The notes under the pieces were generated by a model. It worked only from the letters and a program-made list of their open reading frames with translations. It was not told where the DNA came from and did no database searches. From an uncultured Planctomycetales bacterium (GTDB lineage: Bacteria; Omnitrophota; Gorgyraeia; Zapsychrales; Fredricksoniimonadaceae), in assembly GCA_964438075.1 (NCBI GenBank), contig CAYTIW010000002.1:47994-111993 (forward strand): 64,000 nt of DNA. The letters run 5' to 3'. Shown piece by piece: positions 7,979-25,382 of this stretch. Position 1 is the first letter of the stretch; each line of letters starts with the position of its first letter. The translations under genes were made by a program, and so were the position numbers.

Positions 7979-8033
7979 GGGTAGAAAGACAATAGATTAA
8001 GTATAAAATATCATATATCAATGAGGGCTTATG

Positions 8034-8068
8034 AAAAAAGCCCGTTACTTTATATAACGGGCTTTTCC
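8034..8068 (-). terminator. Rho-independent terminator downstream of the ferritin-like gene
   Basis: 10-bp perfect stem AAGCCCGTTA/TAACGGGCTT with a 7-nt loop. An A-run lies on one side and a T-run on the other, so on the minus strand the hairpin is followed by UUUUUU. Confidence 0.6.
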
Positions 8069-8087
8069 ATATCTGAACGGCAAAGGA

Positions 8088-8597
8088 TCATCGTTTGCCC
8101 TGGGACAGGAAATCACTCAGGTCCTCTTCCAAGGACTGGAGGTCTTCTTCATGCTCCACTTCGTCTTGGAGGATCTGAAGTACGATGTTATAAGTAACAG
8201 GATCCTTGTCCGCGGTGAGATCGACCAGAGATTTGTACACGCTTATAGCACATTGCTCGCCTTTTATGTTCTGCATTAACAATTTCTTAACGTGAGGGTC
8301 CTCAGGAGCGTCATAACCACAATGCGATCTCTTAAGCCACTCTTGGGGGGTCAGAAGCGGCGTGCCCCCCAGTTGGATGATACGAAGTGAAAGCATGTCG
8401 GCGTGCCGCAGTTCGTCCGCCGCGTGCTGTGTCAACTCCGCGATGACAGCGTCCTTCATCGGCCCCTTGGCCAATTTGGATCCGAGCCAGTATTGATAAT
8501 AAGCCAACCATTCATCCGCATAGGCCTTGTTGAGAAGATCCAACAGTTTAGGAATATTCATGTTAACGATCGAACGACCTTTTGTCCCCATATTCAC
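8088..8597 (-). CDS. Ferritin-like (bacterioferritin/Dps-like) di-iron domain protein
   Basis: YADEWLAYYQYW...HAADELRHADMLSLRIIQLGGTP...ILQDEVEHEEDL contains E/H ligand spacing (ExxH twice) typical of the ferritin-like four-helix bundle. A GAGGTG RBS precedes the ATG. Confidence 0.5.
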   Translation of the reverse strand: MNMGTKGRSIVNMNIPKLLDLLNKAYADEWLAYYQYWLGSKLAKGPMKDAVIAELTQHAADELRHADMLSLRIIQLGGTPLLTPQEWLKRSHCGYDAPEDPHVKKLLMQNIKGEQCAISVYKSLVDLTADKDPVTYNIVLQILQDEVEHEEDLQSLEEDLSDFLSQGKR

Positions 8598-8831
8598 CTC
8601 ACAAAAATTATCAGTTGATATTATGCAATTTGCCCGATGTTTTTATAGCCAGGACTCGGACTGATCTTTAGCGTACAGAGTAGATTGTATGACTATACCG
8701 GCTTTTGACAATATCTTTTTTAGACCGGTTATGCCCCGCGAACGATTACCACCAGGGATTATAAGTAGGAACTTCGATTTTGTATTTTTTTATTATTTAC
8801 CTATAAAGGGCGAGTTTTCATAAAACGTGAT

Positions 8832-8868
8832 AAAAAAACCGCGCTCAACCGGATGGTCGAACGCGGTT
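8832..8868 (-). terminator. Rho-independent terminator downstream of the 95-aa secreted-protein gene
   Basis: Stem AACCGCG / CGCGGTT flanked by an A7 run; on the minus strand the hairpin is followed by UUUUUUU. Confidence 0.5.
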
Positions 8869-8891
8869 AATTTCCTTCCTGGAATGGCGTG

Positions 8892-9179
8892 TTATTTATC
8901 GGCCTTAGCCTCTTCGACTTTGTTAATCTTAGACTTGGTTGTTACCGGATATGCCGACGCAACAAATCCCGAACCTCGATTTTCCTGAATGCTTTTTTCA
9001 TCTGACAACATCTTCTGCAGCACAGGTTTAGCCACTACTAACGGCATCTGTGAAATAACCTGGGCCTGGGACGTCGTACTGCTTAAAAGGAACGCTGCCA
9101 GAACAATACCAACCACCTGACCCCATAATTTATTTTCCATGGCGTTTCCCCCTGTTTTAACAAATAACCAATGTTCCAT
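8892..9179 (-). CDS. Small secreted hypothetical protein (95 aa)
   Basis: N-terminal signal-peptide-like segment LWGQVVGIVLAAFLLSSTTSQAQV. The rest is a Lys-rich tail. Confidence 0.4.
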   Translation of the reverse strand: MEHWLFVKTGGNAMENKLWGQVVGIVLAAFLLSSTTSQAQVISQMPLVVAKPVLQKMLSDEKSIQENRGSGFVASAYPVTTKSKINKVEEAKADK

Positions 9180-9392
9180 CAGTTATAGTATAACAGAAGA
9201 ATAAGGGGTGCTCGGATGGTATAAAGAAAACATTTTCTTCAAGAAAGGGCTATTCTAACGCAACTCCTTATATCTCAATAGATTATTATTAGAGAAAATC
9301 TGAGAAAATGAAAGCATTTTTTAATATTTTTCGAAACAATCCGAACAAATGCTAAAACCCGCACAAAGAACGAGAAAGGATCGGCAACAAAT

Positions 9393-9866
9393 CTAAATTT
9401 TAAATCTTCGATTTATAATTACCATAATTATTAACCAGATTATCAAAAATAGAAAAGTGATCATTCCTGTTAATAGATATTTTAAGATAGGATGCCATTT
9501 CAAGCGGAAAAGTTTGGCGTTCAGATGTACAGCCAGAACCCCAATAACGCCTCCGATTAAACCACCCATTAAAAGCATCAATATGGGCAAGCACGACCAA
9601 ATATATTGTGCGGTGGTCAAGGGTTTTATAGTCTCGATCACGTCACCATTCTCTAACTCAATATAGGGTATGCCGTCTATAATACTGCCCAGATCGTATT
9701 TGAACTTGATCTCCACTGTTCTACCACTATTATCGCGCAAAATGTACTTGCCACCTTCGCGGGGGAGTTTGACGCCGTTAACATAAAGCTTGGTCCCGGT
9801 CCATAACCCGCCCTTTAAAGTCAAGGTCCTTCCTTCGAAACCCGGAATATTGACTACCACCCCCAT
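9393..9866 (-). CDS. Hypothetical membrane protein (157 aa; N-terminal soluble domain plus 2-3 TM helices)
   Basis: C-terminal half is strongly hydrophobic (LPILMLLMGGLIGGVIGVLAV; LLTGMITFLFLIIWLIIMVII). Confidence 0.4.
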   Translation of the reverse strand: MGVVVNIPGFEGRTLTLKGGLWTGTKLYVNGVKLPREGGKYILRDNSGRTVEIKFKYDLGSIIDGIPYIELENGDVIETIKPLTTAQYIWSCLPILMLLMGGLIGGVIGVLAVHLNAKLFRLKWHPILKYLLTGMITFLFLIIWLIIMVIINRRFKI

Positions 9867-10140
9867 AATATTTAATCCCCCTTTTAATTCATTGTTTTAC
9901 TGTTGGTCCCATATCTTTTTACCCCTAATCGCATACACGCTGATGCATTTTTAATAATAATACCCAAAAGCTCACGTGACTAGAAAATCTGCGAAACCTT
10001 GTCTACGGGGTCATAATCAACTAAAAACTTTACTAAAGAAGGATAGACCCCACAACCTTACCGTGATTCCCGAGCCCTGAAACAAGGTAACAGTGTTAAA
10101 AAACGTTTGTCTGAAAAGCTGCTCAAGATATGTCTCCGCG

Positions 10141-10452
10141 TTACATCCCGTATAAACACTGGCAATCGGTTTGTCCAGTTTCAGCATCTACCAAAGCTCC
10201 ATACATACATGTATCATTTGCCTCTTTCGCCTTGAAGAGTATGCCCCAAACGGGCTCAGGTGAATTTAGGTTAACATAATAGTGTCGGCTGTAATATTGA
10301 TTTTTGTACGAGCTGCCCGCTAAGCAATCTTGAGCTATCTTTACTGCTTCCGATCGACTGACTTTTAATTTTCCCTGTAAGCCTACAGTTGCACAAGAAT
10401 AAATGAGGGGCAGAAATAACAGGAAAATAATAATCATATTGTTTTTAGCCAT
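10141..10452 (-). CDS. Small lipoprotein, PepSY-like; candidate immunity protein for the upstream RHS toxin
   Basis: Signal peptide plus a lipobox-like LIYSC. AAGGTGG RBS. The SEAVKIAQDCL stretch is PepSY-like. It lies immediately downstream of the RHS gene on the same strand. Confidence 0.4.
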   Translation of the reverse strand: MAKNNMIIIFLLFLPLIYSCATVGLQGKLKVSRSEAVKIAQDCLAGSSYKNQYYSRHYYVNLNSPEPVWGILFKAKEANDTCMYGALVDAETGQTDCQCLYGM

Positions 10453-10647
10453 GGAATTAAACCACCTTTCTTAGTCTGATGCCTGTTGAATGGCATTAAC
10501 TGGTTTTCGCTGGTCGATAAAACTCTATCCGCAGGATGCGTCCATGTGTGTGCGACCACGAAAAGGGTCACTAAGCAACACATAATTTTTTGTCATTGAT
10601 CAAATGAGGCGGTTGATAATACATATCTGGTGATATTATTATCCTCC

Positions 10648-13600
10648 TCATGGCCTATCAGGATAACCATACACCCTGATACGGCTTGGTGCCTCCCCTC
10701 CGGCGCCATAAATGACACTATTGACTGCAAAATTGCTGTTAAAACTCAAAGCGGAATATTTTGTTTGCCCAGAAAAAGTCATATCATAAAGTTGGATATT
10801 TTCATGCAAAGCGGCAAAATTAACTTCCGCAGAGAACCTCCTGATATAATCACCTGCAAGAGTAATTGATTTCTCGGTACATAAGTGTGTTCCCCATGTT
10901 TCCAGATCGATAACTGTGTTTGTTGTACGCAGAATGCCATTTTCCGGTCCCATCTCCCAACTCCCGTGAGACAATCTACTGGAGACAATGGCCATGTGCC
11001 GGGGGCCGCTTTGACTCCCAGGCTCTCCAGATGCCGACTTCCCCAATGGTCGCGCTACAATATCAACCGTTGTATCTTTACGGTTGACATTCAAGGCATG
11101 CCGAGCGTTCATCTCCCGCGCGAACTGTTTAAAGGCCAGTTCACGATCCGATTGGAATCCCCTTCCGGCCCGATAATTTGAGAATTGTTCGATGTTTGTT
11201 TTTGCTATCCAGTCACCCATCCCCCAGCCTATTACCGCCCCCGCCCAACCGCCTGCGAAACTGTCCCAATTGTCCATCTGAGCGGCGTAAGCCACACTTC
11301 CGGCGAACATGCTCCCCAGAACAAAACCACCTATCATATTATGTGACCCGGAAGCCCAGCCGCCAACACAGCCCAGCACTCCTCCCAGCGCCGCCCCGGT
11401 GATAATCCCGTTACCTTGCGCGCCATTGAGCGCTGCAGTTGTCGCTCCCCCCGCTGCGCCGCCAAGAGCGCCTGCCAGCCAACCTGAAAGACCATAACCG
11501 GCCGGCCCTAGGACTATTCCCAGCGCCACGCCGACGACCGCCCCCGCTGCGCTGTTCAGAAAGCTTTTCCAGTTCCAGCCATAACCCGAAGGGTCAACCA
11601 AACTTACAGGATTGTTCCGGCAATACGAATAGCGGTTCAGGTCCTGCGGGTCGAAAGGATGCTGCACTGTCGGGTCCGCCGTAATGAACCTTCCTAGTTT
11701 GGGATTGTAATAGCGGGCCCCGAAAAAGACAAGCCCAGCCTCGGCATCTATTTTCTTCCCGGTAAAATAGAACCAAGCGACCTTGGGTGATGTGCCGTAC
11801 TTTTCACAGTTCTTGATTTCTCCCCAGGGAGTGAATTCAACTTTTTCCTCGACAAACGACTTCTCGTCGAGCACCAGACTGGTGGACCCCAAATGGTCAC
11901 CGATAAACCAGCGCAAAGTGACTCCGTCGAAAGCTGCGACACGCATGCCGCCGAGAAACAGGTGGTCGATCTCAATACCGTCGCTTTTTTCGTACAGTTC
12001 ACCGACATACGTTGTGGTCACTGCGCTGGCCCCCTTGTTCGAGAAAACGGTCTTCATGGTCCGCCCACCGTCACCGTCGTAGGCATAAGATGCCACCGGG
12101 TAACGTGTGACAGTGCCGGCATCGGTAAACTCCACTTGGACAAGCCTGTTATCAGCGTCGTAGGCGAAATATTGCGTCTTTTCTAATCCGGTCATAACGG
12201 TTAGATTACCGTTGGGGTCATAGGACATGCTGGTCCCGTCAGACAGCGACGTTACTGCATGTGGACCAGAACCGTTCTGTCCGTAGGTATAGACCAGTCT
12301 GCCTTTTTGAAGAAGGTTGCCGGTCTCATCGTAGCGGTAATTAACGACAATACCGTTATCGTTCGATATCACCATTCGGCCCAAAGCGTCGTAAGCGAAG
12401 GTCATGTTAAGGCCCTTTAAATCATCACTCAATTTGACTACATTGCCCACAGGATCATAGTGGTAGCTTTTGGACTGAATGATATTTCCGATAGGGTCTT
12501 TTACGACCTGCCGTAAAAGGCGGGATGTCAACGGGTCATATGAATAAACAACCGTTGTACCGTTGCCGTAATTGAGGGCAGCGATATTGCCGTTGGCAGT
12601 GTAGATGATACCGGTAATGATGTCTTTGGTGGAAGCAACGCTACCGGACATAACCTGAAATTTCAACGTTTTCAACAGTCCCGATGAGGCATCATAGCCG
12701 TAGACAGCTGTACCATTGCCATCCGGGTAAGTCAAGCTAATGATCCTGCCTAAAGCATCATAAGTCCGACTGACCCGGTATGTATCCTGTCCAATAATTT
12801 TGCTGCTCGAGATCTCATCGCCGACGGCATTATAGGTAAAAATGGTCTTGCCAGAGGGATAGTTAACCCCTGTCAGACGTCCGCGTCCGAAATCCGGCGA
12901 TGTGTCGTAGTCGTAGGCGACCAGTTCAAAGCTGCTATCCGAAAGGGTCTTTACGAGTGGGCGTCCCAGGCTATCGAAGGCAAAGGCCACTTGTACACCT
13001 TTAGCGTCGACCTGACTCTTAAGTTGCCCTAGAGGATCGTATTCGTAAATCATTCCGTGCATATCCTGGTCATTCATGGCGGTCTTGCGGCCGAGAGTGT
13101 CGTAAGACATGGACGTGATTTTTCCTTTAGCATCGATGACTTGCGTCAGGTTCCCAGATAAGTCATATACATATTTAGTAGTGGCATAAAGCTGATACGG
13201 CTCGGCAGGATAATAAGAACTGCGGCCGTCCGCCCCTAAATACTCCTCGCGCGCGATTATACGTCCACGCGCATCGACGACGGAACGTTCCTGGTGTCCG
13301 TTGGCATCTATGACGGTCACCCCATGGCTGTCATAATCCCTGGTCTCATAGTTGCCATCCGGGAAATTAATACGGACAGTACGTCCCTGGTCGTCATATG
13401 TATACTTTATCCCCGGACGGGAACTGTTGACGGTGTCTGGAAAGGTCAAAGAGAGGGTGGTAAGAAAGGGTTGGTACGAGGTCTCGAGTGCTCCCCGAGC
13501 GTCGTATGATACTTGGCCGGAAGCTACGTATTTCCCGTTCTCATCGGACTTCGCCTTGGTCATTATGACACGTCCGAGGCCGTCATAGTAGGTATAGCTG

Positions 13601-16600
13601 TCAAGAGTGCCGGGTTGATCATGATTGATCCGGCTTTTTGTCGCGACCACGTAATAACTAGCCCACTGAGCGTACTCCCACGATCTTGTGGGATAGGCAA
13701 AACTGTCCAGCGGAGACACCAAGGATAACGGACGGCCCCAGACATCATAGGTCCGCCATACTTTCTGCTGGTTAGGGTCCACTATAAGTTTCAGCTGGCC
13801 GAAAATTCCTGATCCCTCTGACGTGCTCTCGTTCACGCCATAATACTCGCGGGTCACTTTATGCTTGAGGTCGTTCTCGACCGATACCACGAAAAGCTTA
13901 TAAACGCTGTCCATACTATATCGGGTCTGATGGCCAAGGGCGTCGGTTATGCCCGAAAGGTTCCCGTATTCATCATAGCTGAAGTCTTTGGCGATCCAGC
14001 TTTCCGTTTTATTCAAACTGTTCCAGGTTTCGTTCTTTATGATAAGGCCGTTGGCATCGTAGTTGAACCGGTCTTTACTCAGGTAATTGCCGGATTGATC
14101 AGTGACCACGCTGGCCTGCAACAAGCCCAATATCCAGAAAGAAATATCGTTAGTATATGTTAAGGCAGTGGTCACGCGGTCATCCCCAATATCGTTACCC
14201 GTGTTGAAGTCCACATCGCCGTAATCAATGGTTTTGACCAGGTCACCGAATTTTTCCGTCGTGTTCCATTGATAGATAAAATCTTGTCTGGTACGCCTCC
14301 CGGAAGATCCGGCGTCATATAAAGATTTGTCTATATCAGCCAGGTAGATAAAAGATGAATCGGTAAACCCGTTACCTCGAAAGTATATCGGGAGCCAGTC
14401 CTTTGAATACCAATGATAGTTGGTTCTTTGAAGAAGTTTCCCGTAGCGGTCATAATTGGATACCGTTACCGGACGACCTCGGAAATACACATTGGCCCCG
14501 TTGGTATTGAACGAAGTCTCTATCCGGCCGCCGTAGGCATCTTTAACCGTTGTCCTGGAAAAACCCATAAATTCTCTGGCTGACGGGTCCCATCTCCCCC
14601 CGCTATAGGAATATGAGGTACGGTATACTTCTCCTTGTTTCCATAAAACAGATACCGCTACTTCAGTCACCAGTGGAAGCACAAAAGGCATATTAAGTTG
14701 CTGGAAAGCGGTGGATGGTTGATAGACCACCGATGTTTTTGCGCCCCTTCCATTCTCTAGCGACTTCAGCAGGTCGGGTATCGGACCGGAGCTGTAGGCC
14801 AGTTCAGTGGTCACATTCGAGCCGGCGATATAAGCCATCGCGTCCGTCAGACCGTCTCCGTTATAATCCCCTGGCTGTATCTGGGCGTTGGGATCTTTTA
14901 AGGAAAAGGGCGCTGGCATATCAGAAGCCGGGCCGAAATAGACCGTAATAATACCGCGCCTGATAGAGGGACGGAAAGTGATCTTACCGTTAGGCCAGTC
15001 GTAGTACGCTATATCTGTGCGGCCGTCCTGGTTGAAGTCGGCCAACAACGGATTCCGGTCAGTACCGAAACCGGACTGCACATGGAAAGCGGATCCTCTT
15101 CCGTGCCCGTCTGTGTTCTCGAAAACCACCCAATCCCCGTTGGATCGTTTGAAGGCATAAATGTCCGCCATTTGGTCGGCATTGAAGTCGCCGGTCATGA
15201 CGGCATAGCTGCTGTCACCGTAAGGCAGTGTTTGTACAGGGTCAGCGCTAAAACCATTGGCACGGTTGTTAATCCATATCTGGACCTTTAAAGACGCGTC
15301 GGTCTTCTTTAGAAGGATATCCGTGTAACCGTCACCGTTAAAGTCGCCGGTAGCGATATCAGCGTTCTGCCCCAGTGAGCTGGCCCAGAATCCTTTATCA
15401 AAAAAACTCCGGATAGCGTTGCTCCAGCTGCTGGGCTTGCTCAGCGCGACCCTTAGGCTCCCCGCTGTAATATCATAAGCGGCGATATCGGTGGAACCGT
15501 CACCGTTAAAGTCACCCAGGACGATCTTTTGATTAATGCCGAAATTCCCGATCCAGTTCTGGGGCGGGAGGAATCCCGAGTTACTTGACAAGGCCACTTT
15601 TACATTGCCTGTGTCAGGGTAAAAGGCAGCAGTATCCACTCGCCCATCTCCGTTGAAATCCCCAGCCAGGTTGGAGACTAAAGACATTGTGGAATTCATA
15701 AGATCCACCTTGCTGGCCAGATCGAAACCCAGATCGAAGGTGAAGGATTCATGCTGGTGGTAATCAGTCACTAATATCAGGTTATATCCTGCTACTAGAG
15801 ACAAGGAAGTGCGGTTGACAACACTGGAACCGTTAAGGTATATCCCCCACTCCCCCCCTCCACTCCCAGAAAGCGGAATGGTTTTAGCCTGGTTAACGTA
15901 CACATATGTCCAGCATTGACAGGCCTCATCCTGTCCCGAAGAAAAAGTCAGCCGGCCGTTGTTGTTGATCGACCAGGATACGCCATCCGGGACTGTTCCC
16001 GAGGCTTTGGTATACACCGCACCCATGTCAACATCGAACCCAGGGACCGGGCCGTAGTTCTCATGGCCGCGGTCATAACCAGCTCCGAACTGGCAGTTCC
16101 ACAATTTATCACCCGACGTTTTCGTCGTAGTTACGCTATAGGTGGCCGAGGTCTGGCTGGTGTAGCTGATTTTGAATAATATGCGCGAGGTCGTATTATC
16201 TGAAGCGTATTCCGTGATACTGTTCAGGAATGAACGTCCCGATGTCAGGCTGTTTGAATAAGAAAATTGATATCTCCGCATCCGTATGCCGTTGGCCCTT
16301 ATCGTGAGAGCGGTGATCAGGTTCTTTTCTTTCACTGCAAAACCTGGCCGGTAATCTACAGAATAATTATAAGAATTGCTCGGAGTGACATAACTGGTGA
16401 TGACGTAGGCAAAATTGTTCGTGCTATTCAAGTCGGCAGCGGCGGGGTCCAGTCCGGCTTTCAACACGTAACGGATCTCAAAACTTCCATCAGAATGATA
16501 ATCAATAACATATAAATTGTTCAAACGGTCCGTGACCTTGTCCAGCCGCCATTTGAATACACGGCCGTTGTTTTCGATATTAGAACCTGGGCGGCTACCG

Positions 16601-17073
16601 AAAAAATACGAAACCCCTTTAGGGTCCTGGACGACCCAATAATTTCCCGTATCGATGAATTTAAGCCTGTCCTCCTCCACGCGGGCACGGTATTCATTAG
16701 TGCCGACCTTCACCAGCTCGTAGATCTTTCCGCCTAGGCTGCAAAGGAAGGTATCGTTAGGGCTGTAGGCAGGCACCCCTTTTCTGGTAGAACGAGTTAT
16801 ATAGCCTAGGTCCATGGACCATCCGTTGCCGAAGGGTCCGCTGCCTGATAAGGAAGAATAGGATAGATTAATTGAAGGAGCTATGCCGCGACGTCCTTCG
16901 GGGGTAAAAAGCGGTATGATCGCGCTAGCGCCACCGGTCGATGGGTCGACCGTTATGTTATTAGAAAAAGATTGAGTCTGGGTGTCTGCCCACGAGGGGA
17001 CAGTCAGACCGATCCAGCCGGATACAAATAACATGCCCCCCATGATAAAATTTCTAGTTGCAAACAGTCGCAT
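10648..17073 (-). CDS. Giant secreted SpvB–FG-GAP–RHS/YD-repeat protein (Tc-toxin B/C-fusion-like polymorphic toxin) with C-terminal payload
   Basis: Signal peptide MRLFATRNFIMGGMLFVSGWIGLTVPSWA with an AGGAAAGG RBS; the ORF track's longer N-terminal extension to 17277 is probably not translated. The SpvB-like N-domain contains PSINLSYSSLSGSGPFGNGWSMDLGYITRSTRKGVPAY. Six FG-GAP/VCBS-like repeats follow (GDFNGDGRVDTAAF, GDFNGDGSTDIAAY, GDFNGDGYTDIL, GDFNADQMADIYAF, ADFNQDGRTDIAYY, GDYNGDGLTDAMAY). More than 25 YD/RHS repeats of the YxYDxxGR type come next. The RHS core ends at PVSLVDPSGY, at about 11581. A 310-aa variable C-terminus follows. Confidence 0.8.
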   Translation of the reverse strand: MRLFATRNFIMGGMLFVSGWIGLTVPSWADTQTQSFSNNITVDPSTGGASAIIPLFTPEGRRGIAPSINLSYSSLSGSGPFGNGWSMDLGYITRSTRKGVPAYSPNDTFLCSLGGKIYELVKVGTNEYRARVEEDRLKFIDTGNYWVVQDPKGVSYFFGSRPGSNIENNGRVFKWRLDKVTDRLNNLYVIDYHSDGSFEIRYVLKAGLDPAAADLNSTNNFAYVITSYVTPSNSYNYSVDYRPGFAVKEKNLITALTIRANGIRMRRYQFSYSNSLTSGRSFLNSITEYASDNTTSRILFKISYTSQTSATYSVTTTKTSGDKLWNCQFGAGYDRGHENYGPVPGFDVDMGAVYTKASGTVPDGVSWSINNNGRLTFSSGQDEACQCWTYVYVNQAKTIPLSGSGGGEWGIYLNGSSVVNRTSLSLVAGYNLILVTDYHQHESFTFDLGFDLASKVDLMNSTMSLVSNLAGDFNGDGRVDTAAFYPDTGNVKVALSSNSGFLPPQNWIGNFGINQKIVLGDFNGDGSTDIAAYDITAGSLRVALSKPSSWSNAIRSFFDKGFWASSLGQNADIATGDFNGDGYTDILLKKTDASLKVQIWINNRANGFSADPVQTLPYGDSSYAVMTGDFNADQMADIYAFKRSNGDWVVFENTDGHGRGSAFHVQSGFGTDRNPLLADFNQDGRTDIAYYDWPNGKITFRPSIRRGIITVYFGPASDMPAPFSLKDPNAQIQPGDYNGDGLTDAMAYIAGSNVTTELAYSSGPIPDLLKSLENGRGAKTSVVYQPSTAFQQLNMPFVLPLVTEVAVSVLWKQGEVYRTSYSYSGGRWDPSAREFMGFSRTTVKDAYGGRIETSFNTNGANVYFRGRPVTVSNYDRYGKLLQRTNYHWYSKDWLPIYFRGNGFTDSSFIYLADIDKSLYDAGSSGRRTRQDFIYQWNTTEKFGDLVKTIDYGDVDFNTGNDIGDDRVTTALTYTNDISFWILGLLQASVVTDQSGNYLSKDRFNYDANGLIIKNETWNSLNKTESWIAKDFSYDEYGNLSGITDALGHQTRYSMDSVYKLFVVSVENDLKHKVTREYYGVNESTSEGSGIFGQLKLIVDPNQQKVWRTYDVWGRPLSLVSPLDSFAYPTRSWEYAQWASYYVVATKSRINHDQPGTLDSYTYYDGLGRVIMTKAKSDENGKYVASGQVSYDARGALETSYQPFLTTLSLTFPDTVNSSRPGIKYTYDDQGRTVRINFPDGNYETRDYDSHGVTVIDANGHQERSVVDARGRIIAREEYLGADGRSSYYPAEPYQLYATTKYVYDLSGNLTQVIDAKGKITSMSYDTLGRKTAMNDQDMHGMIYEYDPLGQLKSQVDAKGVQVAFAFDSLGRPLVKTLSDSSFELVAYDYDTSPDFGRGRLTGVNYPSGKTIFTYNAVGDEISSSKIIGQDTYRVSRTYDALGRIISLTYPDGNGTAVYGYDASSGLLKTLKFQVMSGSVASTKDIITGIIYTANGNIAALNYGNGTTVVYSYDPLTSRLLRQVVKDPIGNIIQSKSYHYDPVGNVVKLSDDLKGLNMTFAYDALGRMVISNDNGIVVNYRYDETGNLLQKGRLVYTYGQNGSGPHAVTSLSDGTSMSYDPNGNLTVMTGLEKTQYFAYDADNRLVQVEFTDAGTVTRYPVASYAYDGDGGRTMKTVFSNKGASAVTTTYVGELYEKSDGIEIDHLFLGGMRVAAFDGVTLRWFIGDHLGSTSLVLDEKSFVEEKVEFTPWGEIKNCEKYGTSPKVAWFYFTGKKIDAEAGLVFFGARYYNPKLGRFITADPTVQHPFDPQDLNRYSYCRNNPVSLVDPSGYGWNWKSFLNSAAGAVVGVALGIVLGPAGYGLSGWLAGALGGAAGGATTAALNGAQGNGIITGAALGGVLGCVGGWASGSHNMIGGFVLGSMFAGSVAYAAQMDNWDSFAGGWAGAVIGWGMGDWIAKTNIEQFSNYRAGRGFQSDRELAFKQFAREMNARHALNVNRKDTTVDIVARPLGKSASGEPGSQSGPRHMAIVSSRLSHGSWEMGPENGILRTTNTVIDLETWGTHLCTEKSITLAGDYIRRFSAEVNFAALHENIQLYDMTFSGQTKYSALSFNSNFAVNSVIYGAGGEAPSRIRVYGYPDRP

Positions 17074-17420
17074 AGCATTGCCTTTCCTGTTCATTGAACT
17101 TTTTCCGGCTGGGGGTAACCGTAAGAATCTTGGGGGCCGCATTGCAGGTATCAAAACAACAAATAAACCGCGCCGTCTAGCGGATCGATAGCACATACCG
17201 GGATGTGCTCGGGGGCGGGGATCCAGGTAGGGTTGTAACCGGCGCGGAAAGCCGGGGCATTCGCCAGCCAGGAGCATCCTGGCAATGGAAATTTGTCTAA
17301 GCAGTAATGTCCTGCACGATTATGTCGATGAAATCCGGCGTAATAATTTAATGTTCCAGGTTGATAACCAAATATAGAAAGTCATGAAAACAGGCTTCCC
17401 TTTGCCTGTCAAAGACCCGA

Positions 17421-17510
17421 ATATATCGGGCGCCCGGTGCTTCTCCAGACACGCCCCCAAAAGCCTTCCCCCGCCAGGGAGAAGCGCATGTCTATACCCG
17501 GGCGCCCGAT
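17421..17510 (-). terminator. Long inverted repeat (13-bp GC-rich stem, ~46-nt loop) immediately downstream of spoVG; possible terminator or regulatory structure
   Basis: ATCGGGCGCCCGG (17425-17437) pairs with CCGGGCGCCCGAT (17495-17507), a perfect reverse complement. There is no clean U-tract. Confidence 0.3.
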
Positions 17511-17514
17511 AGGC

Positions 17515-17784
17515 TCACTCAGATTGCGATCTTTGGTAGTGACCGATGACCTGTTCAGAGAACTCTTCGTAAATGCTCGCGTTCTTGCATACGACCTGGT
17601 CGTACCATTTATTGTCTTTGCCCTGTTCCTGCGGCATAGAAACAAAAAGTCCTTTCTTGCCTGACAGCACCCGGATCCCTTTGATAACCAGGGCATCATT
17701 TACCGCCACATCTGCAAATGCCTTCAGGTTGCCTGCGTCTGGAAGGCGGTACATTTTTTCAACTTTAAAATGGATATTTCCCAT
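17515..17784 (-). CDS. spoVG: SpoVG-family protein
   Basis: MGNIHFKVEKMYRLPDAGNLKAFADVAVNDALVIKGIRVLSGKKGLFVSMPQEQ...DQVVCKNASIYEEFSEQVI aligns with the SpoVG signature (RM-AIASI--D-AFVVHDIRVIDG-NGLFVAMPS). The ORF-track N-terminal extension is ignored; the internal ATG at 17782-17784 is used. Confidence 0.7.
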   Translation of the reverse strand: MGNIHFKVEKMYRLPDAGNLKAFADVAVNDALVIKGIRVLSGKKGLFVSMPQEQGKDNKWYDQVVCKNASIYEEFSEQVIGHYQRSQSE

Positions 17785-17962: not shown

Positions 17963-18226
17963 TTATTTTTTCTTGCCCTCTACCGGCAATATCGGAGACT
18001 CAGCCTCCGCCTTAGCCTTCAGGTAACTTTTGGATGGCTTGTAGCCCTTGGCTTCAGCCTCTTCCTTGGTCATCCTGACCGTGTCTCGGTTCTTGATGAA
18101 CGGCGATTCCGCGTGATGGTAGACCTTGCCGCTCTTGGTAACGAAAACATCCTCGGCAAAGCTCATCGCCGCCGCACCTGCCGCCATAAAAGCGGCCATC
18201 AATAAAACCAACAGTTTCTTTTTCAT
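17963..18226 (-). CDS. Small secreted Lys-rich hypothetical protein (87 aa)
   Basis: Signal peptide MKKKLLVLLMAAFMAAGAAAMSFA. A 4-nt overlap with the upstream gene suggests translational coupling. Confidence 0.4.
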   Translation of the reverse strand: MKKKLLVLLMAAFMAAGAAAMSFAEDVFVTKSGKVYHHAESPFIKNRDTVRMTKEEAEAKGYKPSKSYLKAKAEAESPILPVEGKKK

Positions 18227-19815
18227 GGGTTGTCCCTCCTTGGTTGATGGTTGAAACTGTCATTTATAATAAGTCTCGAAAAAGCTCCTCCGGTGTAACC
18301 GTCCAGAAGGGCCGTCAATTCCGCCACTCTCATCTCTGCAGCCATCCGCTCGCCGCTATCTGCATATGAGCACGCGGACAGTTCAACCTGAAGCCGTCGC
18401 CGCTCGAAATATATTCTTGTTACCTGGTCGATCACCTGTTCGCGCAACTCGACCATGAGTTTAGAACGCGAATCGATAGCTGTCTGGTCGCTGCTCCAGA
18501 CCATATCCGATAGTTTCCAGGTCAGACGCACATCCCAGTCTGAATATGAGCGCCCTTTTTGCAGGACGTCCGGATTAGAGCCGGTATCCCAGTGCAATAG
18601 TTCTCCAGAAGCGCGGTCCACCCCGATGGAGAGATCAGGGACTAAAGCCTTGACCCTGGCCTGGCGGCGCCAGGCATCGATCTTCGATTTGTCGGCTTCG
18701 GCATGATCCACCGCCATGACCTGGACCTGACGCACCGATGGCTCGAATGAGAATTCGGCCTCGATCCGGGGATAATCTTTAAAAATGCATTGGGGGGCGT
18801 AGTTGGTTGGATCATTATTTTTAAGGGTGCTGGTTACATCGTCTATGATATAAACGCCGCGCCTGGTAGCAGCTATCAGCCCGCGTTCGCGCAGAATAGA
18901 CAGCCGTACAACATCGATTTCATCCATGCCGGCGTAGAGGTTCTTAACCGCGCCTTCATGACCGCAGGCGACCCCTTTGGACGAAGAAAAACACACGATC
19001 TCCCGACCGTCTTCCCCCGTAATAGAGACGACCGACGAAATTATTCCGGAGATATTCCCTGGCCAGCGGAACTCGCGCCAGGTCGTCCCTCCATCCTGGC
19101 TTATATAAATTCCATGCCTGGCCGCCAGATAAAGCCCTTCATATCCCATGAATACATCGACCAGTTCGTTTTCCCATCCGGCAGGCAGCGTTCTCTCATC
19201 TTCCGTTTCTACATCTGTCCCGTCCTCACTTCCCATCCCCAGGGAAAAGGCCTTTATCCCCAGAGCGTGGTCCGCGTTTATGAAATACAGATCATGTCGC
19301 GTCATAGCAAAAAAACCGTTTTCGCTGACCAATAGTCGAAGAACTTTCTCTCTGCCCAGAGACCCTGGAAAGCGTTGCCAGACCGGCTCGTCAAGGGACC
19401 GCACAAAAATCCCCTTATCGCTTGCCAGAAGATATCGATCATCCTCAGCGGAAATATCATAGACTGCAGCTTCCGTGTTTTCCCGTAGCCAGTTGTTACC
19501 ATTATTATTAGAAGAAAAGAGCCCCCGGTCGGTAGCGGCCAAGATACGCTCACCGCGTGTAAATATTTCATTAACGGGTTCTCCAAGGATCCGCTTAGAT
19601 GAAAGCAAAGGCGATGAAATGTTGACCTGGAATAAACCGGCCGAAGACATTACCATAATAAATTTGTCATTCCGGATATCAATAGTCGCTCCTCGGACGT
19701 CATTATTCCCAGTAGAGACATATAACCTGCGCCAATCCTGTTGCGCGTATGAAGATGTTGCTAGAGTTAATGTCATAAATAAAACTGTTAATGAAATATG
19801 TTTATTTTTCATAAC
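18223..19815 (-). CDS. Secreted beta-propeller-like protein (BNR/Ycf48-like repeats) with an unassigned C-terminal domain
   Basis: Signal peptide MKNKHISLTVLFMTLTLATSSYAQ. Repeated motifs of the form [ST]xDxGxxW / 'GIFVRS', 'GIYISQDGGTTWREF' are typical of BNR/Ycf48 propeller blades. The start is taken at the internal MKNK. Confidence 0.45.
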   Translation of the reverse strand, partial: VMKNKHISLTVLFMTLTLATSSYAQQDWRRLYVSTGNNDVRGATIDIRNDKFIMVMSSAGLFQVNISSPLLSSKRILGEPVNEIFTRGERILAATDRGLFSSNNNGNNWLRENTEAAVYDISAEDDRYLLASDKGIFVRSLDEPVWQRFPGSLGREKVLRLLVSENGFFAMTRHDLYFINADHALGIKAFSLGMGSEDGTDVETEDERTLPAGWENELVDVFMGYEGLYLAARHGIYISQDGGTTWREFRWPGNISGIISSVVSITGEDGREIVCFSSSKGVACGHEGAVKNLYAGMDEIDVVRLSILRERGLIAATRRGVYIIDDVTSTLKNNDPTNYAPQCIFKDYPRIEAEFSFEPSVRQVQVMAVDHAEADKSKIDAWRRQARVKALVPDLSIGVDRASGELLHWDTGSNPDVLQKGRSYSDWDVRLTWKLSDMVWSSDQTAIDSRSKLMVELREQVIDQVTRIYFERRRLQVELSACSYADSGERMAAEMRVAELTALLDGYTGGAFSRLIINDSFNHQPRRDNP

Positions 19816-20071
19816 GGCATACAGTCTGGTGCAGTTCTTGTAGTGCTCTATCGAGCAGTTCATTGTTTACTGCATTCTTTATTTCTGGTTTGATGCGTTC
19901 AATGGCCTTTGTATAGCTGTCAAGGAAATCGAGCATGGCCTCTATTCCAAGCCGATCGCGCATTTTCTTAAGAACAAGCAGGACTGTATAGATTATGATA
20001 AGGCGACGGTTAAGGTTCGGGCTGCCTTTATCGTTTAGATAATTGATGGAAATATTAGATGTGTTCAACAT
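19802..20071 (-). CDS. Hypothetical small protein (89 aa)
   Basis: ORF only. Partly hydrophobic N-terminus. No motif recognised. Confidence 0.2.
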   Translation of the reverse strand: MLNTSNISINYLNDKGSPNLNRRLIIIYTVLLVLKKMRDRLGIEAMLDFLDSYTKAIERIKPEIKNAVNNELLDRALQELHQTVCRYEK

Positions 20072-21212: not shown

Positions 21213-24200
21213 CTAGTTATTTGGGATACCAAGGAAGGACTGGATGCTACTTAAAGGCCGCATGTCGATAAGTACCGGTGAGAAACCCGGCATGGCATCG
21301 AAACGCCTGACCATGATCGGGTCGACATTGAATTTCACACCGCCGCCCGAGTTTTGCACCTGCAGGTCCAGCCGGTCAGTGTTAAAGTCGATACCACCGT
21401 AGACGGCCTCTTTCATGGCAAAGTCGAACTGCCAGGCTACCGACGATGTGCTCTTCAACTTTATCTCTCCCTTTTGGCGGGAAGCATATTTTTTGAAGAA
21501 TTCCAACGACCTGGTCCGGCTGAAAGGTATAAAGGCTAAAGACATCTTTCCAGCGGCACGCAGTTCCCCGATGAGACGGTCCAGCAGAAGCGAGCCCAAC
21601 CCGCTGGGCGCATCCGGAAGCGAGGCGACACGCGAAAGGTAAGGCTCAGCAGAATTTATCCGTGAACAGATAGAGAACCCGATGATTTGGCCGTCCTTCT
21701 GCGCCCAGTATACCTTGACGTCAGGGTCTTTAAGATAGGCCTCGATGGTCCCGCGTTCCAGTCGGTGGTTCCGGCCGAAATCGGGGTTGTTCTGAAAACG
21801 GGCCTGCCGGTCTACCCGGGCGATACCGTCAACCACGGCTTCCAGGTTCTCCGCCGTGACCGATTCTCCCACCACCACGCCCTCGATCGATCCCTGCGCC
21901 GGATCAGCATCATCCGTTCCCTGCTGCCCTTCAGACGCAGTCCCTTTCCCAGGCGTTACAAGCTTACGCTGAAACTCAACGGTCCCTTTAGTGACATTGA
22001 TCTCTGCACGTAATTGATCATTAGTGTTATTCATGTTAAAAAGATATATCCTCACGATGTCCGGTAAGGCTAATTCAATATTATCATAGTAATAATTTTT
22101 AAAGTTCGGCAGGCCGGAACGGTTAGCCAGTAAGAGGCGAAAAGCTTCCGCGACATTACGCTGGGCGTTCAACGCTTCGGCTGAGTACGTGGCAAGACCC
22201 TCACGCTGCAGGAAAGCCATGGCATCATAGGTGGCTTGGAAGGCCAGGGCCTCATCTTCAAGCGCACCTATACCAGGGGCCATGTAATAATCCCGCACAT
22301 GCCTGCCTTCGTGGGCTATTTTTATTGCCAGAAGGGCGAAGGCTTCCTTATCGCTCAAACCCTCGAAGGCGTCGGCACTCACCACGACAAGCTTGCTTGT
22401 CACTATCGTCATAGCATAACTACGGTGCGCAGTGCCCAGGGAACTCTCCCGGCTCAATCCGGTCAAAAACAAGACCCTTAAGGGGGGCGTGTCGGACGGC
22501 AAAAGGCCGTTGTCCTTAAGAAAACTTTCCACCTCTCCGGCCCAGGCCTGTTTGGCTACCGATATTTCTATGGACCGTTTCAATTGCTCAGGAGTAATCT
22601 CTCCCATCCTGGAGCCATGGCTATAAATGAGCTCCGGCGTCAGGTCGTCCCATCCGGCAGGAAGGTTTATCGTCGTCCCGGGAGGTTCCTGTAGAGTATT
22701 GATGGGTTCACATCCCACCCCGAAGGTCAGCGACGCCACCAACAAAATCCCGCTTAATGCGCGGAACAATGACCGCTGCGCCCGGTCCAGTACTTGTTCT
22801 CGGCTGAGGCTGTCTTCACGTGCCGGGAATATCTTTCTGGCCGTAAAAGCATCCAAAGGATCCACATGGTGAACGAATTCCGCAGGGAGGTCGTAATAGA
22901 AAGCGACCTCTTCTTCGACGTCTCCCTTTTGGGCCACGACCGGACGATTGTCTGTCAGCCAGTCGACAGGGATCCGGTAAGTGACCACCGTGCCGTTCCC
23001 GATAGTGGCCGCCCGCCTGGCCATTTCCGGATTGAGGGTGGTATGCAAGGTGGCATCATTTTCCGCACCCCTTTGGGCGATATTCCGCAAGACCGCCTCC
23101 TCGACGGAAGCGCCGTATCTTTTGTAGGCCTCTTCCTTGGGGATGTTATTGGCAGCAGCCAAGGACTGATGGGCCGCCCCCTTGATGGCATCCGGGCTTA
23201 CATTCTTAAGCCCACGGTAGACGAATATGAACGAACGGCCGTTCCTGTCGACTGTGCGATTGAAATCTTTAAGCGTGGCGGTACGACCCGGCACCTGGAC
23301 GAGCCCCACCGGTTCGTTTTCAGGTATTGAGGGCCATTTCCGGGAAAGGTCCGGGAACGCGCTCTGCGCCCTATCTGTATCCCGGCCGGTCTGGACGCGT
23401 TCCCGTAAGAACACAAAGGGTTGGAACTGCACGGTCCCCTTGTCGGTATTTATTTTTACCTGCGCCAGTCCCCCGTTCTCTTCATTTACCAGGTCTATCA
23501 GTATTACGGAAGGCGCCCTCAAACTCACGATGGATACATTGGTGTAGTAGTAATTCTGGAAATCTTTTATCTTGTTTTTACCCGTCATCCACAGGAAAAA
23601 GGCCTTGGCCACTGCCCGCTGGGCATCTAGCTGGTCCCTTGAATAGGATGCCCGGCCCTCTTGGGACAGTTTTTCCATCACTGTAACGGTGTTCTGATAA
23701 GCCCGCGCCTCGCTGGCCATCTTTTCACCAGGCGTCGGATTGAGATTGGCCCGGAAGTCATCAGTGTGGGTGCCTTCATGCGCGTATTTGATCGCCAAGA
23801 GCGGGAAGGCGTCCCGCTCGCCGAGCCCCTCAAACGCGTCAGCACTTACCACGATCAGCTCGTTGCCTCTTTCCGATATCGCCAAGGCAAAACTGGCATG
23901 GTGGGGGCCCAATGATCCAGGGCGGCTCAAGCCTTTCAGGAAAAGAATACGTATCGGCGGGCTGTCTTTATTGAGTATGCCCTTTTCCATCAGGAAACTG
24001 CGCACATCATTGACCAGCGGTCTTTTAGAATCAGAGAATTCTATCGATTCTTTTAATTGATTCTCAGATATCCGGCCCATCACAGTGGCGTTACGGTAAA
24101 GAAGGTCCGGCGTGATCCCCTGCCATTCCTGCTGCTGTTCGGTTGTGACCGGCGTCTTTGGGATAAGATCCTGGGCACTGACCGGTGAATTCCCGCTGGA

Positions 24201-25382
24201 CAGCCCTACGGCAAGAATAATAAGCCCTCCGGCTATTACACGTGAGAGTTGGGCGCGGTCATGGGTTATGTTCAGAGATATGTCCGAGAGCATGGAGTAA
24301 TCAAACCCGCCGGAGAAATATTTTCGGGGTAATATCTCCTGCGAATAGGGGTCCTGCTCTTCCTTGATGTAATTGTAGGCGCCCTTTTTGAAAGCTTCGA
24401 CGTACTGTTGCCAGATGCGCCGGGACATTTCCGGGTCATCGATGTTCACGCCTGTCACTTTTTTACGGTCCACATAGACCTTGCTCAGGAGGCTTTCTTT
24501 AACTTTTTTCTTGAACCACGCGGCCAGGATTAGAGACCGGTATACCTGACGTACCGGGGCAAAGTTCCTGCCTTCGTTGACCTCTTTTTCCAGTTCAGGG
24601 AGGATTATTTCACGCAAGATCTGTTTGGACAGGTCCCGGGTGGCGCTCACCGCGTCCGAGTCCCCGTTGGATACGCTGGCGGATCTCTTCTCGTCTGTGT
24701 TCGCTTCCCTGCTATCCAATATCCTCTCCTGCGCTAGATAATCTGATTCCAGCAGGACTTTTAAATGGCTCTCGATGACCAGGGACTGGCCTTCGTTCTC
24801 GAATACCTCGGCCTTATCCGGGGTGATCCAGACCTTGTTGAAGGTGTCCATCGGGATATCGGTCGTGCCGAACATCTCGAAAGCGGCTTGGTAGACCTTG
24901 GACCAGAATTTTTTGCCTACCTCACCCTCTGGATACATCACCGAAGCCGTGATCTGTTTCAAAAGGTAATCCTGTTCCAGCAAGTCTCTGCCCATTTCGG
25001 TCTGCCCGAACTCGTTAGTGATGATACGCTCCTGTTCATATGGCGACAGGTTGACCCACAGGTCCTTTTCGGGCATTGTCAGAGAGGTCAGGAAATAGCG
25101 GATAAGTCTTCCGGATTCCTCCTTGAGGGCATCGGCATCCAGCCGTTCTTCGCCGGGGTCCAGGATGAAATCAAAACGGAACGGGTTGTCGGGATAGACT
25201 TTGATACCTTTAAGCGAGGGAGGGTTGAAAGCCTGGCTCAGCGGCACTAAACTGCCCGGCGGGGGCATGCTTACCAGAGTCTGGGCAGACGACGGGTAGA
25301 CCGCAGTTAGGGCAAAGATAACCGCCATCCCAATGCAAACACTTTTTCGCCAGGAGTGTAGCTTTTGCCAATGCATAAGCAT
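21213..25382 (-). CDS. 1389-aa chimeric secreted/membrane protein: N-terminal domain, two tandem HExxH zincin-like modules, C-terminal GNAT-like domain
   Basis: N-terminal signal peptide. Two internal signal-peptide-like hydrophobic segments at ~24195-24245 (RVIAGGLIILAVGLSSGNSPVSAQD) and ~22705-22770 (LFRALSGILLVASLTFGVGCEP). Two paralogous ~460-aa modules with HExxH motifs: AIKYAHEGTHTDD at ~23770 and AIKIAHEGRHVRD at ~22300. C-terminal PSGLGSLLLDRLIGELRAAGK is a GNAT motif-A-like stretch. Confidence 0.6.
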   Translation of the reverse strand: MLMHWQKLHSWRKSVCIGMAVIFALTAVYPSSAQTLVSMPPPGSLVPLSQAFNPPSLKGIKVYPDNPFRFDFILDPGEERLDADALKEESGRLIRYFLTSLTMPEKDLWVNLSPYEQERIITNEFGQTEMGRDLLEQDYLLKQITASVMYPEGEVGKKFWSKVYQAAFEMFGTTDIPMDTFNKVWITPDKAEVFENEGQSLVIESHLKVLLESDYLAQERILDSREANTDEKRSASVSNGDSDAVSATRDLSKQILREIILPELEKEVNEGRNFAPVRQVYRSLILAAWFKKKVKESLLSKVYVDRKKVTGVNIDDPEMSRRIWQQYVEAFKKGAYNYIKEEQDPYSQEILPRKYFSGGFDYSMLSDISLNITHDRAQLSRVIAGGLIILAVGLSSGNSPVSAQDLIPKTPVTTEQQQEWQGITPDLLYRNATVMGRISENQLKESIEFSDSKRPLVNDVRSFLMEKGILNKDSPPIRILFLKGLSRPGSLGPHHASFALAISERGNELIVVSADAFEGLGERDAFPLLAIKYAHEGTHTDDFRANLNPTPGEKMASEARAYQNTVTVMEKLSQEGRASYSRDQLDAQRAVAKAFFLWMTGKNKIKDFQNYYYTNVSIVSLRAPSVILIDLVNEENGGLAQVKINTDKGTVQFQPFVFLRERVQTGRDTDRAQSAFPDLSRKWPSIPENEPVGLVQVPGRTATLKDFNRTVDRNGRSFIFVYRGLKNVSPDAIKGAAHQSLAAANNIPKEEAYKRYGASVEEAVLRNIAQRGAENDATLHTTLNPEMARRAATIGNGTVVTYRIPVDWLTDNRPVVAQKGDVEEEVAFYYDLPAEFVHHVDPLDAFTARKIFPAREDSLSREQVLDRAQRSLFRALSGILLVASLTFGVGCEPINTLQEPPGTTINLPAGWDDLTPELIYSHGSRMGEITPEQLKRSIEISVAKQAWAGEVESFLKDNGLLPSDTPPLRVLFLTGLSRESSLGTAHRSYAMTIVTSKLVVVSADAFEGLSDKEAFALLAIKIAHEGRHVRDYYMAPGIGALEDEALAFQATYDAMAFLQREGLATYSAEALNAQRNVAEAFRLLLANRSGLPNFKNYYYDNIELALPDIVRIYLFNMNNTNDQLRAEINVTKGTVEFQRKLVTPGKGTASEGQQGTDDADPAQGSIEGVVVGESVTAENLEAVVDGIARVDRQARFQNNPDFGRNHRLERGTIEAYLKDPDVKVYWAQKDGQIIGFSICSRINSAEPYLSRVASLPDAPSGLGSLLLDRLIGELRAAGKMSLAFIPFSRTRSLEFFKKYASRQKGEIKLKSTSSVAWQFDFAMKEAVYGGIDFNTDRLDLQVQNSGGGVKFNVDPIMVRRFDAMPGFSPVLIDMRPLSSIQSFLGIPNN

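Follow-up and report, generated by a model that had tools for sequence, protein, structure and literature searches.

Predicted Sec-exported TcdB/TcaC-class polymorphic toxin with an uncatalogued C-terminal tail and a candidate immunity gene in an Omnitrophota bacterium

Polymorphic toxins of the TcdB/TcaC class combine a signal peptide, an SpvB domain, an integrin-like propeller, and RHS repeats, as summarized in the description of the class from 2012 (Zhang, de Souza, Anantharaman, Iyer, and Aravind; PMC3482391). Here, we report a computational analysis of a predicted toxin gene and of a small gene downstream of it, both on the minus strand of a 64,000-nucleotide (nt) stretch of contig CAYTIW010000002.1 (positions 47,994 to 111,993; GenBank assembly GCA_964438075.1), hereafter called the window. 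An original prediction, made from the sequence letters, had read the larger gene as coding for a single-chain cocoon toxin resembling a fused B and C subunit of Tc toxins. Judged by its domain matches, the toxin has the domain order of the known TcdB/TcaC class, which is not unusual.

Toxin gene and predicted shell

The toxin is encoded by a single, uninterrupted minus-strand open reading frame (ORF; 10648..17277), the features of which are listed in Table 1. Two starts are candidates, the ATG at 17073, preceded at 7 nt by a good Shine-Dalgarno sequence (AGGAAAGG), and the ATG at 17094, which gives 2148 amino acids (aa) and was the choice of the gene callers for this locus in two public metagenome assemblies. 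Either start yields a Sec-type signal peptide, which reads as a basic n-region (MRLFATR), an 18-residue hydrophobic core, and a cleavage site between SWA and DT that satisfies the -3/-1 rule. The original prediction had recognized this peptide and considered it unusual; since the published class definition (PMC3482391) includes a signal peptide and nearly all full-length relatives have equivalent N termini, it is no oddity. A public cluster representative (P0001; Logan assemblies, two sequencing runs) differed from the window toxin at two residues, both in the C-terminal 310 aa, inside the Gly-rich module described below.

Table 1. Predicted features of the toxin gene and its downstream neighbor, in window coordinates
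Feature	Position (nt)	Strand	Remarks
Toxin gene	10648..17073	-	2141 aa from ATG 17073; stop codon 10648-10650
Sec-type signal peptide	16987..17073	-	29 aa; predicted cleavage between SWA and DT; read from sequence
SpvB/TcaC N-terminal domain	16483..16944	-	PF03534, E = 8.5e-22, aa 44-197
Beta-rich insert between SpvB domain and propeller	15682..16029	-	~115 aa; possible binding module
Six FG-GAP repeats	14842..15663	-	Integrin-like beta-propeller, predicted equivalent of the TcB gate
TcdB_toxin_midN	14503..14889	-	PF12256, E = 4.6e-14; absent from the original prediction
RHS/YD repeat region	12076..14067	-	Predicted shell wall; 14 canonical YD motifs
Rhs-associated core	11584..11832	-	Predicted aspartyl autoprotease; TIGR03696, E = 1.2e-21, aa 1748-1830
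Gly/Ala-rich hydrophobic pre-toxin module (head)	11161..11580	-	140 aa
Terminal toxin tail	10651..11160	-	~160 aa; uncatalogued family
Candidate cognate immunity gene	10141..10452	-	98-103 aa; exported protein, possibly a lipoprotein

Profile searches for SpvB, FG-GAP, RHS_repeat, and the Rhs core, all named as checks in the original prediction, returned significant matches. The SpvB-type N-domain read earlier was thus recovered by PF03534; structurally, it extends beyond the Pfam match, to about nt 16100, and the region was matched by PDB entry 6p0x and YenB in sequence searches and by 6p0x in Foldseek. The insert that follows is well ordered and all beta in the AlphaFold2 (AF2) model (residues ~320 to 435; predicted local distance difference test [pLDDT] score, about 80 to 90), had no match in Pfam, NCBIfam, or PDB sequence searches, and is possibly a binding module. 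Exactly six [GA]D[FY]N.D...D motifs were counted in the propeller, the number first proposed, and Pfam FG-GAP/FG-GAP_3 matched there at about 1e-15. Beyond it, TcdB_toxin_midN stood alone, as no TcdB middle/C-terminal domain (PF12255) was found at E <= 0.01 in a Pfam scan of the whole protein.

RHS repeats were strongly matched (RHS_repeat, 4.6e-40; YD_repeat_2x, 1.5e-25). Their presence, but not their number, agreed with the original prediction: more than 25 had been given, whereas the strict motif [YF]x[YF]D occurs 14 times (aa 1010 to 1673 in the 2148-aa numbering), and a count above 25 is plausible if degenerate hairpins are included. In the core, the motifs GARYY, TADP, and VDPSGY supply an Arg (codon 11713-11715) and two Asp (codons 11674-11676 and 11593-11595) that align with R/D651/D674 of TccC3 and were aligned to SGS1 too. 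The core ends in DPSGY, its Tyr codon finishing at nt 11581 as first stated, and self-cleavage is predicted to follow that residue (codon 11581-11583). The cores of close relatives end in NRYSY..NNP....DP[ST]G[HY].

PDB sequence searches with the whole protein matched solved TcdB2-TccC3 fusions over three separate stretches (4e-29); further matches were to YenB, to the SpvB N-domain, and to several Rhs cocoons of type VI secretion systems (T6SS). An AF2 model of residues 30 to 1200 (1171 aa), built with an alignment of 35 relatives, reached a pLDDT of 86.9 and a predicted template modeling (TM) score of 0.82. In a Foldseek comparison with the PDB (all TM-scores query normalized), the top 13 matches were all TcB chains (TcdB1, TcdB2, and YenB; E, 3e-45 to 3e-39; TM-score, 0.57 to 0.68), including 6l7i_F, 6h6e_F, and 4igl_A (E, 3e-45 to 5e-43; TM-score, 0.64 to 0.68). 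Scores were far lower for T6SS Rhs proteins (E, ~1e-14 to 1e-20; TM-score, 0.10 to 0.20), the mosquito protein SGS1 (E, 4.7e-17; TM-score, 0.24), the bacterial teneurin-like protein 9ifo (E, 8.2e-16; TM-score, 0.16), and teneurins (E, ~1e-12 to 1e-16; TM-score, 0.09 to 0.18). Because the TcB scores far exceed those of the other groups, the N-terminal half is specifically TcB-like, beyond what a generic RHS protein would give; in the model, its overall fold is that of a Tc-toxin B subunit. The domain matches, the PDB sequence matches to TcdB2-TccC3, YenB, and SpvB, and the TcB superposition together bear out the single-chain, BC-like cocoon toxin of the original prediction.

At least 270 proteins matched the toxin at E <= 1e-20. 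The same set of SpvB, FG-GAP, TcdB_midN, RHS, and YD-shell domains was present in the great majority of the 120 matches listed, which came from Omnitrophota, Leptospira, Amycolatopsis, Mesorhizobium, Bacteroides, and others. In one distant relative (P0112; 3183 aa), SpvB, FG-GAP, TcdB_midN, and RHS domains are preceded by a full-length TcA TcB-binding domain (PF18276, aa 440-717, E = 2.7e-30), a natural fusion of a TcA fragment with a BC-like protein.

Payload and candidate immunity gene

The sequence after DPSGY is 310 aa long, the length originally given, and consists of two modules, a head and a tail; as a whole it had no Pfam or NCBIfam match. Glycine makes up 24% of the head and alanine 18%, with 16 GxxxG motifs and several hydrophobic stretches of transmembrane length. 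Nothing usable came from searches of the head against Pfam, NCBIfam, and PDB sequences or profiles. The variability that had been claimed for this end of the protein was evident in its relatives, of which 60 fell into 53 tail clusters. Close relatives have a short SW.K.F motif after the core, then 100 to 140 Gly/Ala-rich residues, with a variable tail last; eight relatives share the window's head, every one with another tail, and the closest shell relatives lack the window's tail. When these 310 aa were used as the query in an exhaustive HMMER search, 87 proteins were recovered, matched in the head only, in the tail only, or in both.

The tail had no match in Pfam, NCBIfam, or PDB sequence and profile searches. 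Conserved features of its family are an invariant His, WEMGP, TTNT, W.T…T, and N-[S/E/D]-N-[YF]-A-[VI]-N..IYG.GG, and its conserved polar residues besides the His are R, E, T, T, N, N, and Y. In the AF2 model of the tail (pLDDT, 92.3), the invariant His (39/39) lies on strand 53-58, and the N-S-N motif caps the N terminus of a helix. The middle position of that motif, where a nucleophile would sit, is Ser in 41 of 48 sequences, Glu in 4, Asp in 3, and Cys in none. We hold with moderate confidence that the modeled tail resembles permuted papain-fold hydrolases; the likeness is weak, with no significant Foldseek result and no enzyme match.

The tail family is almost confined to Omnitrophota. Among species-representative genomes, 18 loci carried the tail, 14 labeled Omnitrophota and 4 labeled Planctomycetia or Planctomycetales, and it ended either a protein of 2077 to 2795 aa or a short "orphan" ORF of 365 to 470 aa. 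At 14 of the 18, an ORF of 120 to 137 aa on the same strand begins 0 to 50 nt downstream of the tail gene and encodes a signal or lipoprotein peptide and the motif D[LI]SDG[VL][SN]KEEAIIIAQNY. A profile built from these 14 loci, with the window excluded, was searched against 800 window ORFs; the sole match was ORF 10141-10470, which adjoins the toxin gene on its 3' side (E = 1.3e-6). As a control, 977 ORFs at loci with related shells but other tails were searched, and none matched the immunity profile or the tail profile, which argues that the immunity gene tracks the tail and not the shell. Since it co-occurs with the tail (14 of 18 other loci) and is absent beside other tails, the small exported downstream protein is likely an immunity protein.

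A signal peptide, lipobox, or transmembrane segment was present in 17 of 18 downstream partners, which points to a site of action in the envelope or periplasm. Outside the set of 14, the partners at L007 and L018 are lipoproteins and that at L019 is a small transmembrane protein; the L004 partner is a signal-peptide-bearing copy of the tail-like domain. The immunity proteins found nothing usable in Pfam, NCBIfam, or the PDB (subthreshold hits to PepSY, E 0.23, and Inhibitor_I69, E 0.09, were not relied on). Multiple immunity copies and orphan cassettes, in which a core fragment, head, tail, and immunity gene stand together, were seen at L003, L005, L011, L014, and L017, with both extra copies and orphan cassettes carried by L011 and L014. 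With no Pfam or NCBIfam model for either protein and a narrow taxonomic range, the tail and immunity pair appears to be new.

GC content is 0.50 in the toxin gene and drops to 0.40 across the immunity gene and the region downstream; positions 8000-10650, which span the immunity gene and small downstream ORFs, have a GC content of about 0.40 to 0.42, compared with ~0.50 for the window. Two genes downstream of the toxin lies an ORF (9393-9866, minus strand, 157 aa) with a soluble N-terminal half, C-terminal transmembrane helices, and no family match; it was considered as a second immunity gene and left unassigned, as no homologue stands beside any related locus. At locus L004, the ORF directly after the toxin gene (8369-8863) encodes a signal peptide and a second tail-like domain in which WEAGP replaces WEMGP, and the contig ends there. 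IS200/Y1-transposase-like ORFs (PHH..RGNNR) lie just after the immunity gene at seven Omnitrophota loci (L005, L008, L010, L012, L014, L015, and L016), and a Y1-transposase-like ORF (Pfam Y1_Tnp) was also found at L021 (18268-18957).

Genomic context and interpretation

Elsewhere, the window carries typical chromosomal genes (RuvB, IF-2, NusA, tRNA synthetases, RseP, ClpP, trigger factor, and similar), and its PurA is 80 to 87% identical to proteins from metagenome-assembled genomes of Candidatus Omnitrophica/Omnitrophota, which identifies the host as an Omnitrophota bacterium. Scans of the 64-kb window found no ORF of TcA size and no TcA family match, in keeping with the original prediction, and three relatives that lie on long contigs likewise showed no TcA-family gene in the 10 kb around them. 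A T6SS Rhs effector was rejected on the T6SS/PAAR check named in that prediction, run here on the window: neither the toxin nor its window neighbors matched PAAR or VgrG, and the TM-scores to T6SS Rhs proteins were those given above.

Upstream of the toxin gene, an exported protein of 546 aa (18223-19863, minus strand) has no Pfam match and, among NCBIfam models, only weakly resembles an F510_1955-family glycosyl hydrolase (2.6e-8, well short of the cutoff) and PorZ of the type IX secretion system. Two further large minus-strand genes are not TcA-like, one for 1389 aa (21213-25382) with a weak C-terminal GNAT acetyltransferase as its only match, and one for 1833 aa (25576-31077) with five CARDB and He_PIG/Ig domains. 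In two close relatives (L021, 5974-9969, and the locus of P0004), the SpvB-RHS gene is directly preceded on the same strand by a conserved cluster, in which two small ORFs flank the genes for a secretin (546 aa) and a PilN-domain protein (447 aa); the cluster could form an outer-membrane export route. Such a route was rejected for the window toxin, as this cluster has no counterpart here and the upstream 546-aa ORF is not a secretin. A promoter and terminator scan of 9300-17600 was uninformative.

We consider that the gene product is probably a single-chain polymorphic toxin of the TcdB/TcaC class, exported by Sec, independent of TcA, antibacterial or predatory, and directed at the envelope of the target. 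The features that define the class were all found in the sequence, namely, a signal peptide, SpvB domain and propeller, RHS repeats with core, varying tail, and co-varying candidate immunity gene. That gene and the two-module C terminus, both missed by the original prediction, turn the reading away from an insecticidal Tc role and toward an antibacterial or predatory toxin.

In the mechanism we propose, the toxin would be exported by Sec and fold into a closed cocoon in the periplasm or on the surface of the producer, closure being taken from homology. Self-cleavage after DPSGY would leave the hydrophobic payload shielded within the shell, as in SGS1, and contact with a target cell would release it without a TcA pentamer. 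The Gly-rich segment would then enter the target membrane, either permeabilizing it or carrying or anchoring the tail, which would act in the cell envelope, likely as a hydrolase of permuted papain-like fold with His and Ser/Glu instead of Cys. Within the periplasm of the producer, the downstream exported protein would neutralize the tail. The toxin would likely serve to kill competitors or prey; since one cultured member of the Omnitrophota is a predator and predation is discussed for the phylum (bioRxiv 10.1101/2023.11.21.568195), prey killing is as plausible as competition. A bolder version, which we regard as speculative and rather doubtful, would make the Gly/Ala segment a built-in membrane translocator replacing TcA, the toxin a self-delivering BC cocoon, and the payload a new His/Ser(Glu) permuted papain-fold enzyme, with which predatory Omnitrophota breach the envelope of their prey.

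Several points weigh against the reading as a TcA-independent toxin with a cognate immunity gene. The immunity match in the window is significant but weak (23.8 bits), and the gene starts ~195 nt downstream of the toxin gene, compared with 0 to 50 nt at other loci. Variation among S, E, and D at the presumed nucleophile (7 of 48 Glu or Asp) is odd for a nucleophile. The search for TcA covered the 64-kb window, and one could be encoded elsewhere in the genome. The secretin/PilN cluster of two relatives, a possible route across the outer membrane, is absent beside the window gene. The toxin function is inferred throughout, and shell closure and encapsulation are assumed by homology.

An encoded-elsewhere TcA would fit a different account, in which the protein is the BC part of a canonical three-part Tc toxin, with TcA docking on the propeller and the C-terminal domain injected into eukaryotic cells. 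The TcB-like global structure of the N-terminal half, the SpvB, TcdB_midN, and Rhs core domains, and the TcA TcB-binding domain of the distant relative P0112 are all compatible with this; the 310-aa C terminus falls within the 201 to 400 aa typical of TcC hypervariable regions, and natural tcB-tcC fusion genes were noted in the same 2021 Tc survey (PMC7861908). We nevertheless consider it very unlikely. No TcA was found in the 64 kb or beside the three relatives, and a signal peptide is atypical of canonical Tc subunits; the Yersinia entomophaga Tc toxin, as summarized in one report, is released by lysis that depends on a type X secretion system (PMC10847048). A conserved candidate immunity partner is present here, whereas no immunity proteins were found at any canonical Tc locus examined (PMC7861908). 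The payload, moreover, opens with ~140 hydrophobic residues, and the host, a member of the Omnitrophota, is free-living or predatory. Still less probable, and in our estimate hardly tenable, is a role as an adhesin at the cell surface or in cell-cell recognition, as for metazoan teneurins, with a C terminus that would not be delivered as a toxin. The signal peptide, propeller, extra beta-rich insert, and a TEN_YD-shell Pfam match would suit such a protein, and bacterial teneurin-like proteins are discussed in cell-cell interaction roles, but the autoprotease residues (R/D/D) are complete here while teneurins lack the last catalytic Asp, the structure is far from teneurins and the teneurin-like protein (TM-score, 0.09 to 0.18), the tails are polymorphic, orphan cassettes occur, and the candidate immunity partner is specific to the tail.

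The identity of the toxic module is a separate matter. The Gly/Ala-rich segment could itself be toxic as a glycine-zipper pore former, leaving the tail as a targeting, oligomerization, or regulatory domain bound by the downstream protein; its GxxxG motifs and transmembrane-length stretches would suit a pore, the tail has no Cys and a variable nucleophile position, Foldseek found no enzyme match for it, and the hydrophobic C-terminal domain of a teneurin-like protein permeabilizes Escherichia coli from the periplasmic side (PMC13018210). We think this unlikely. Relatives share the head while their tails and downstream genes differ, so that immunity tracks the tail, as expected if the tail is the toxic part, and its invariant His and conserved R, E, T, T, N, N, and Y are typical of a catalytic site.

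If the preferred reading of an envelope-directed TcdB/TcaC-class toxin holds, Omnitrophota, which have one cultured predatory representative, gain a concrete candidate toxin-immunity pair that has no Pfam or NCBIfam model and is testable in E. coli. A clearly TcB-like fold that stands beside a candidate immunity gene, with no TcA in its context, is relevant to the question of how cargo leaves BC-type cocoons when there is no A-subunit syringe. The order of the C-terminal parts is common to bacterial proteins and mosquito SGS1, and the former could therefore be tractable models for the unexplained step that it involves. The domain order itself is no discovery, and the added interest is modest, coming from the payload and immunity pair and its narrow taxonomic range.

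Comparison with known systems

For the tail, the nearest comparison is with permuted papain-fold hydrolases (PPPDE/DeSI, the NlpC/P60 effector TseH, LRAT/PLAAT, and YiiX). The order of His followed by N-S-N in the tail is that of His and Cys in these enzymes, but the tail family never has Cys at that position, and no sequence-profile link joins the two.

The Tc BC subcomplexes (TcdB2-TccC3, TcdB1-TccC2, and YenB-YenC2) share with the window toxin the TcB fold, SpvB domain, propeller, midN domain, RHS shell, Arg/Asp/Asp autoprotease residues, and a variable C terminus of ~300 aa. The window toxin differs from them in being one gene with a Sec signal peptide and no TcA in view, in lacking a TcdB_midC match and having the extra ~115-aa insert before its propeller, and in a payload that opens with a hydrophobic segment and is accompanied by a candidate immunity gene.

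Among PDB sequences, the Rhs core was matched best by mosquito SGS1 (PDB 8fjp), and the alignment runs on into the hydrophobic segment. In SGS1, predicted transmembrane helices follow the autoprotease site, are hidden inside a Tc-like shell, and precede the terminal toxin domain (PMC9935623), and the C-terminal order of autoprotease site, hydrophobic or transmembrane segment, and terminal toxin-like domain is the same in the window toxin. Otherwise the two are far apart: SGS1 is eukaryotic, 3364 aa long, with two propellers and lectin domains (global TM-score to the modeled N-terminal half, 0.24), carries an unrelated tail (Tox-SGS), and lacks an immunity gene.

Bacterial teneurin-like proteins (BiTLP; PDB 9ifo) are likewise Sec-exported, single-chain YD shells around a cleaved polymorphic C-terminal domain, and their immunity gene follows directly. 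A close functional analogue among such proteins comes from Bacillus: its C-terminal domain is hydrophobic, was toxic to E. coli only with a signal peptide, that is, in the periplasm, and has an immunity gene in the operon (PMC13018210). In bacterial teneurin-like proteins an FN-plug and an NHL propeller close off the shell, in contrast to the SpvB domain and FG-GAP propeller here, and the C-terminal domains are much smaller (~15 kDa); the Foldseek TM-score is 0.16. No NHL match was found in the window toxin by the Pfam scan, and the YD shell is the only domain common to both.

The closest known system is the TcdB/TcaC class itself. Omnitrophota is not among the phyla in the Table 1 row for this class (PMC3482391), "SpvB" is absent from the Omnitrophota genome literature that was searched, where Rhs or toxins come up a few times in connection with other proteins, and the Gly-rich module, tail family, and immunity family of the window match no Pfam or NCBIfam model. 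Common to the class and the window toxin are the signal peptide, SpvB domain, propeller, RHS repeats, polymorphic C-terminal toxin, and adjacent immunity gene, as well as the orphan cassettes, seen here in relatives.

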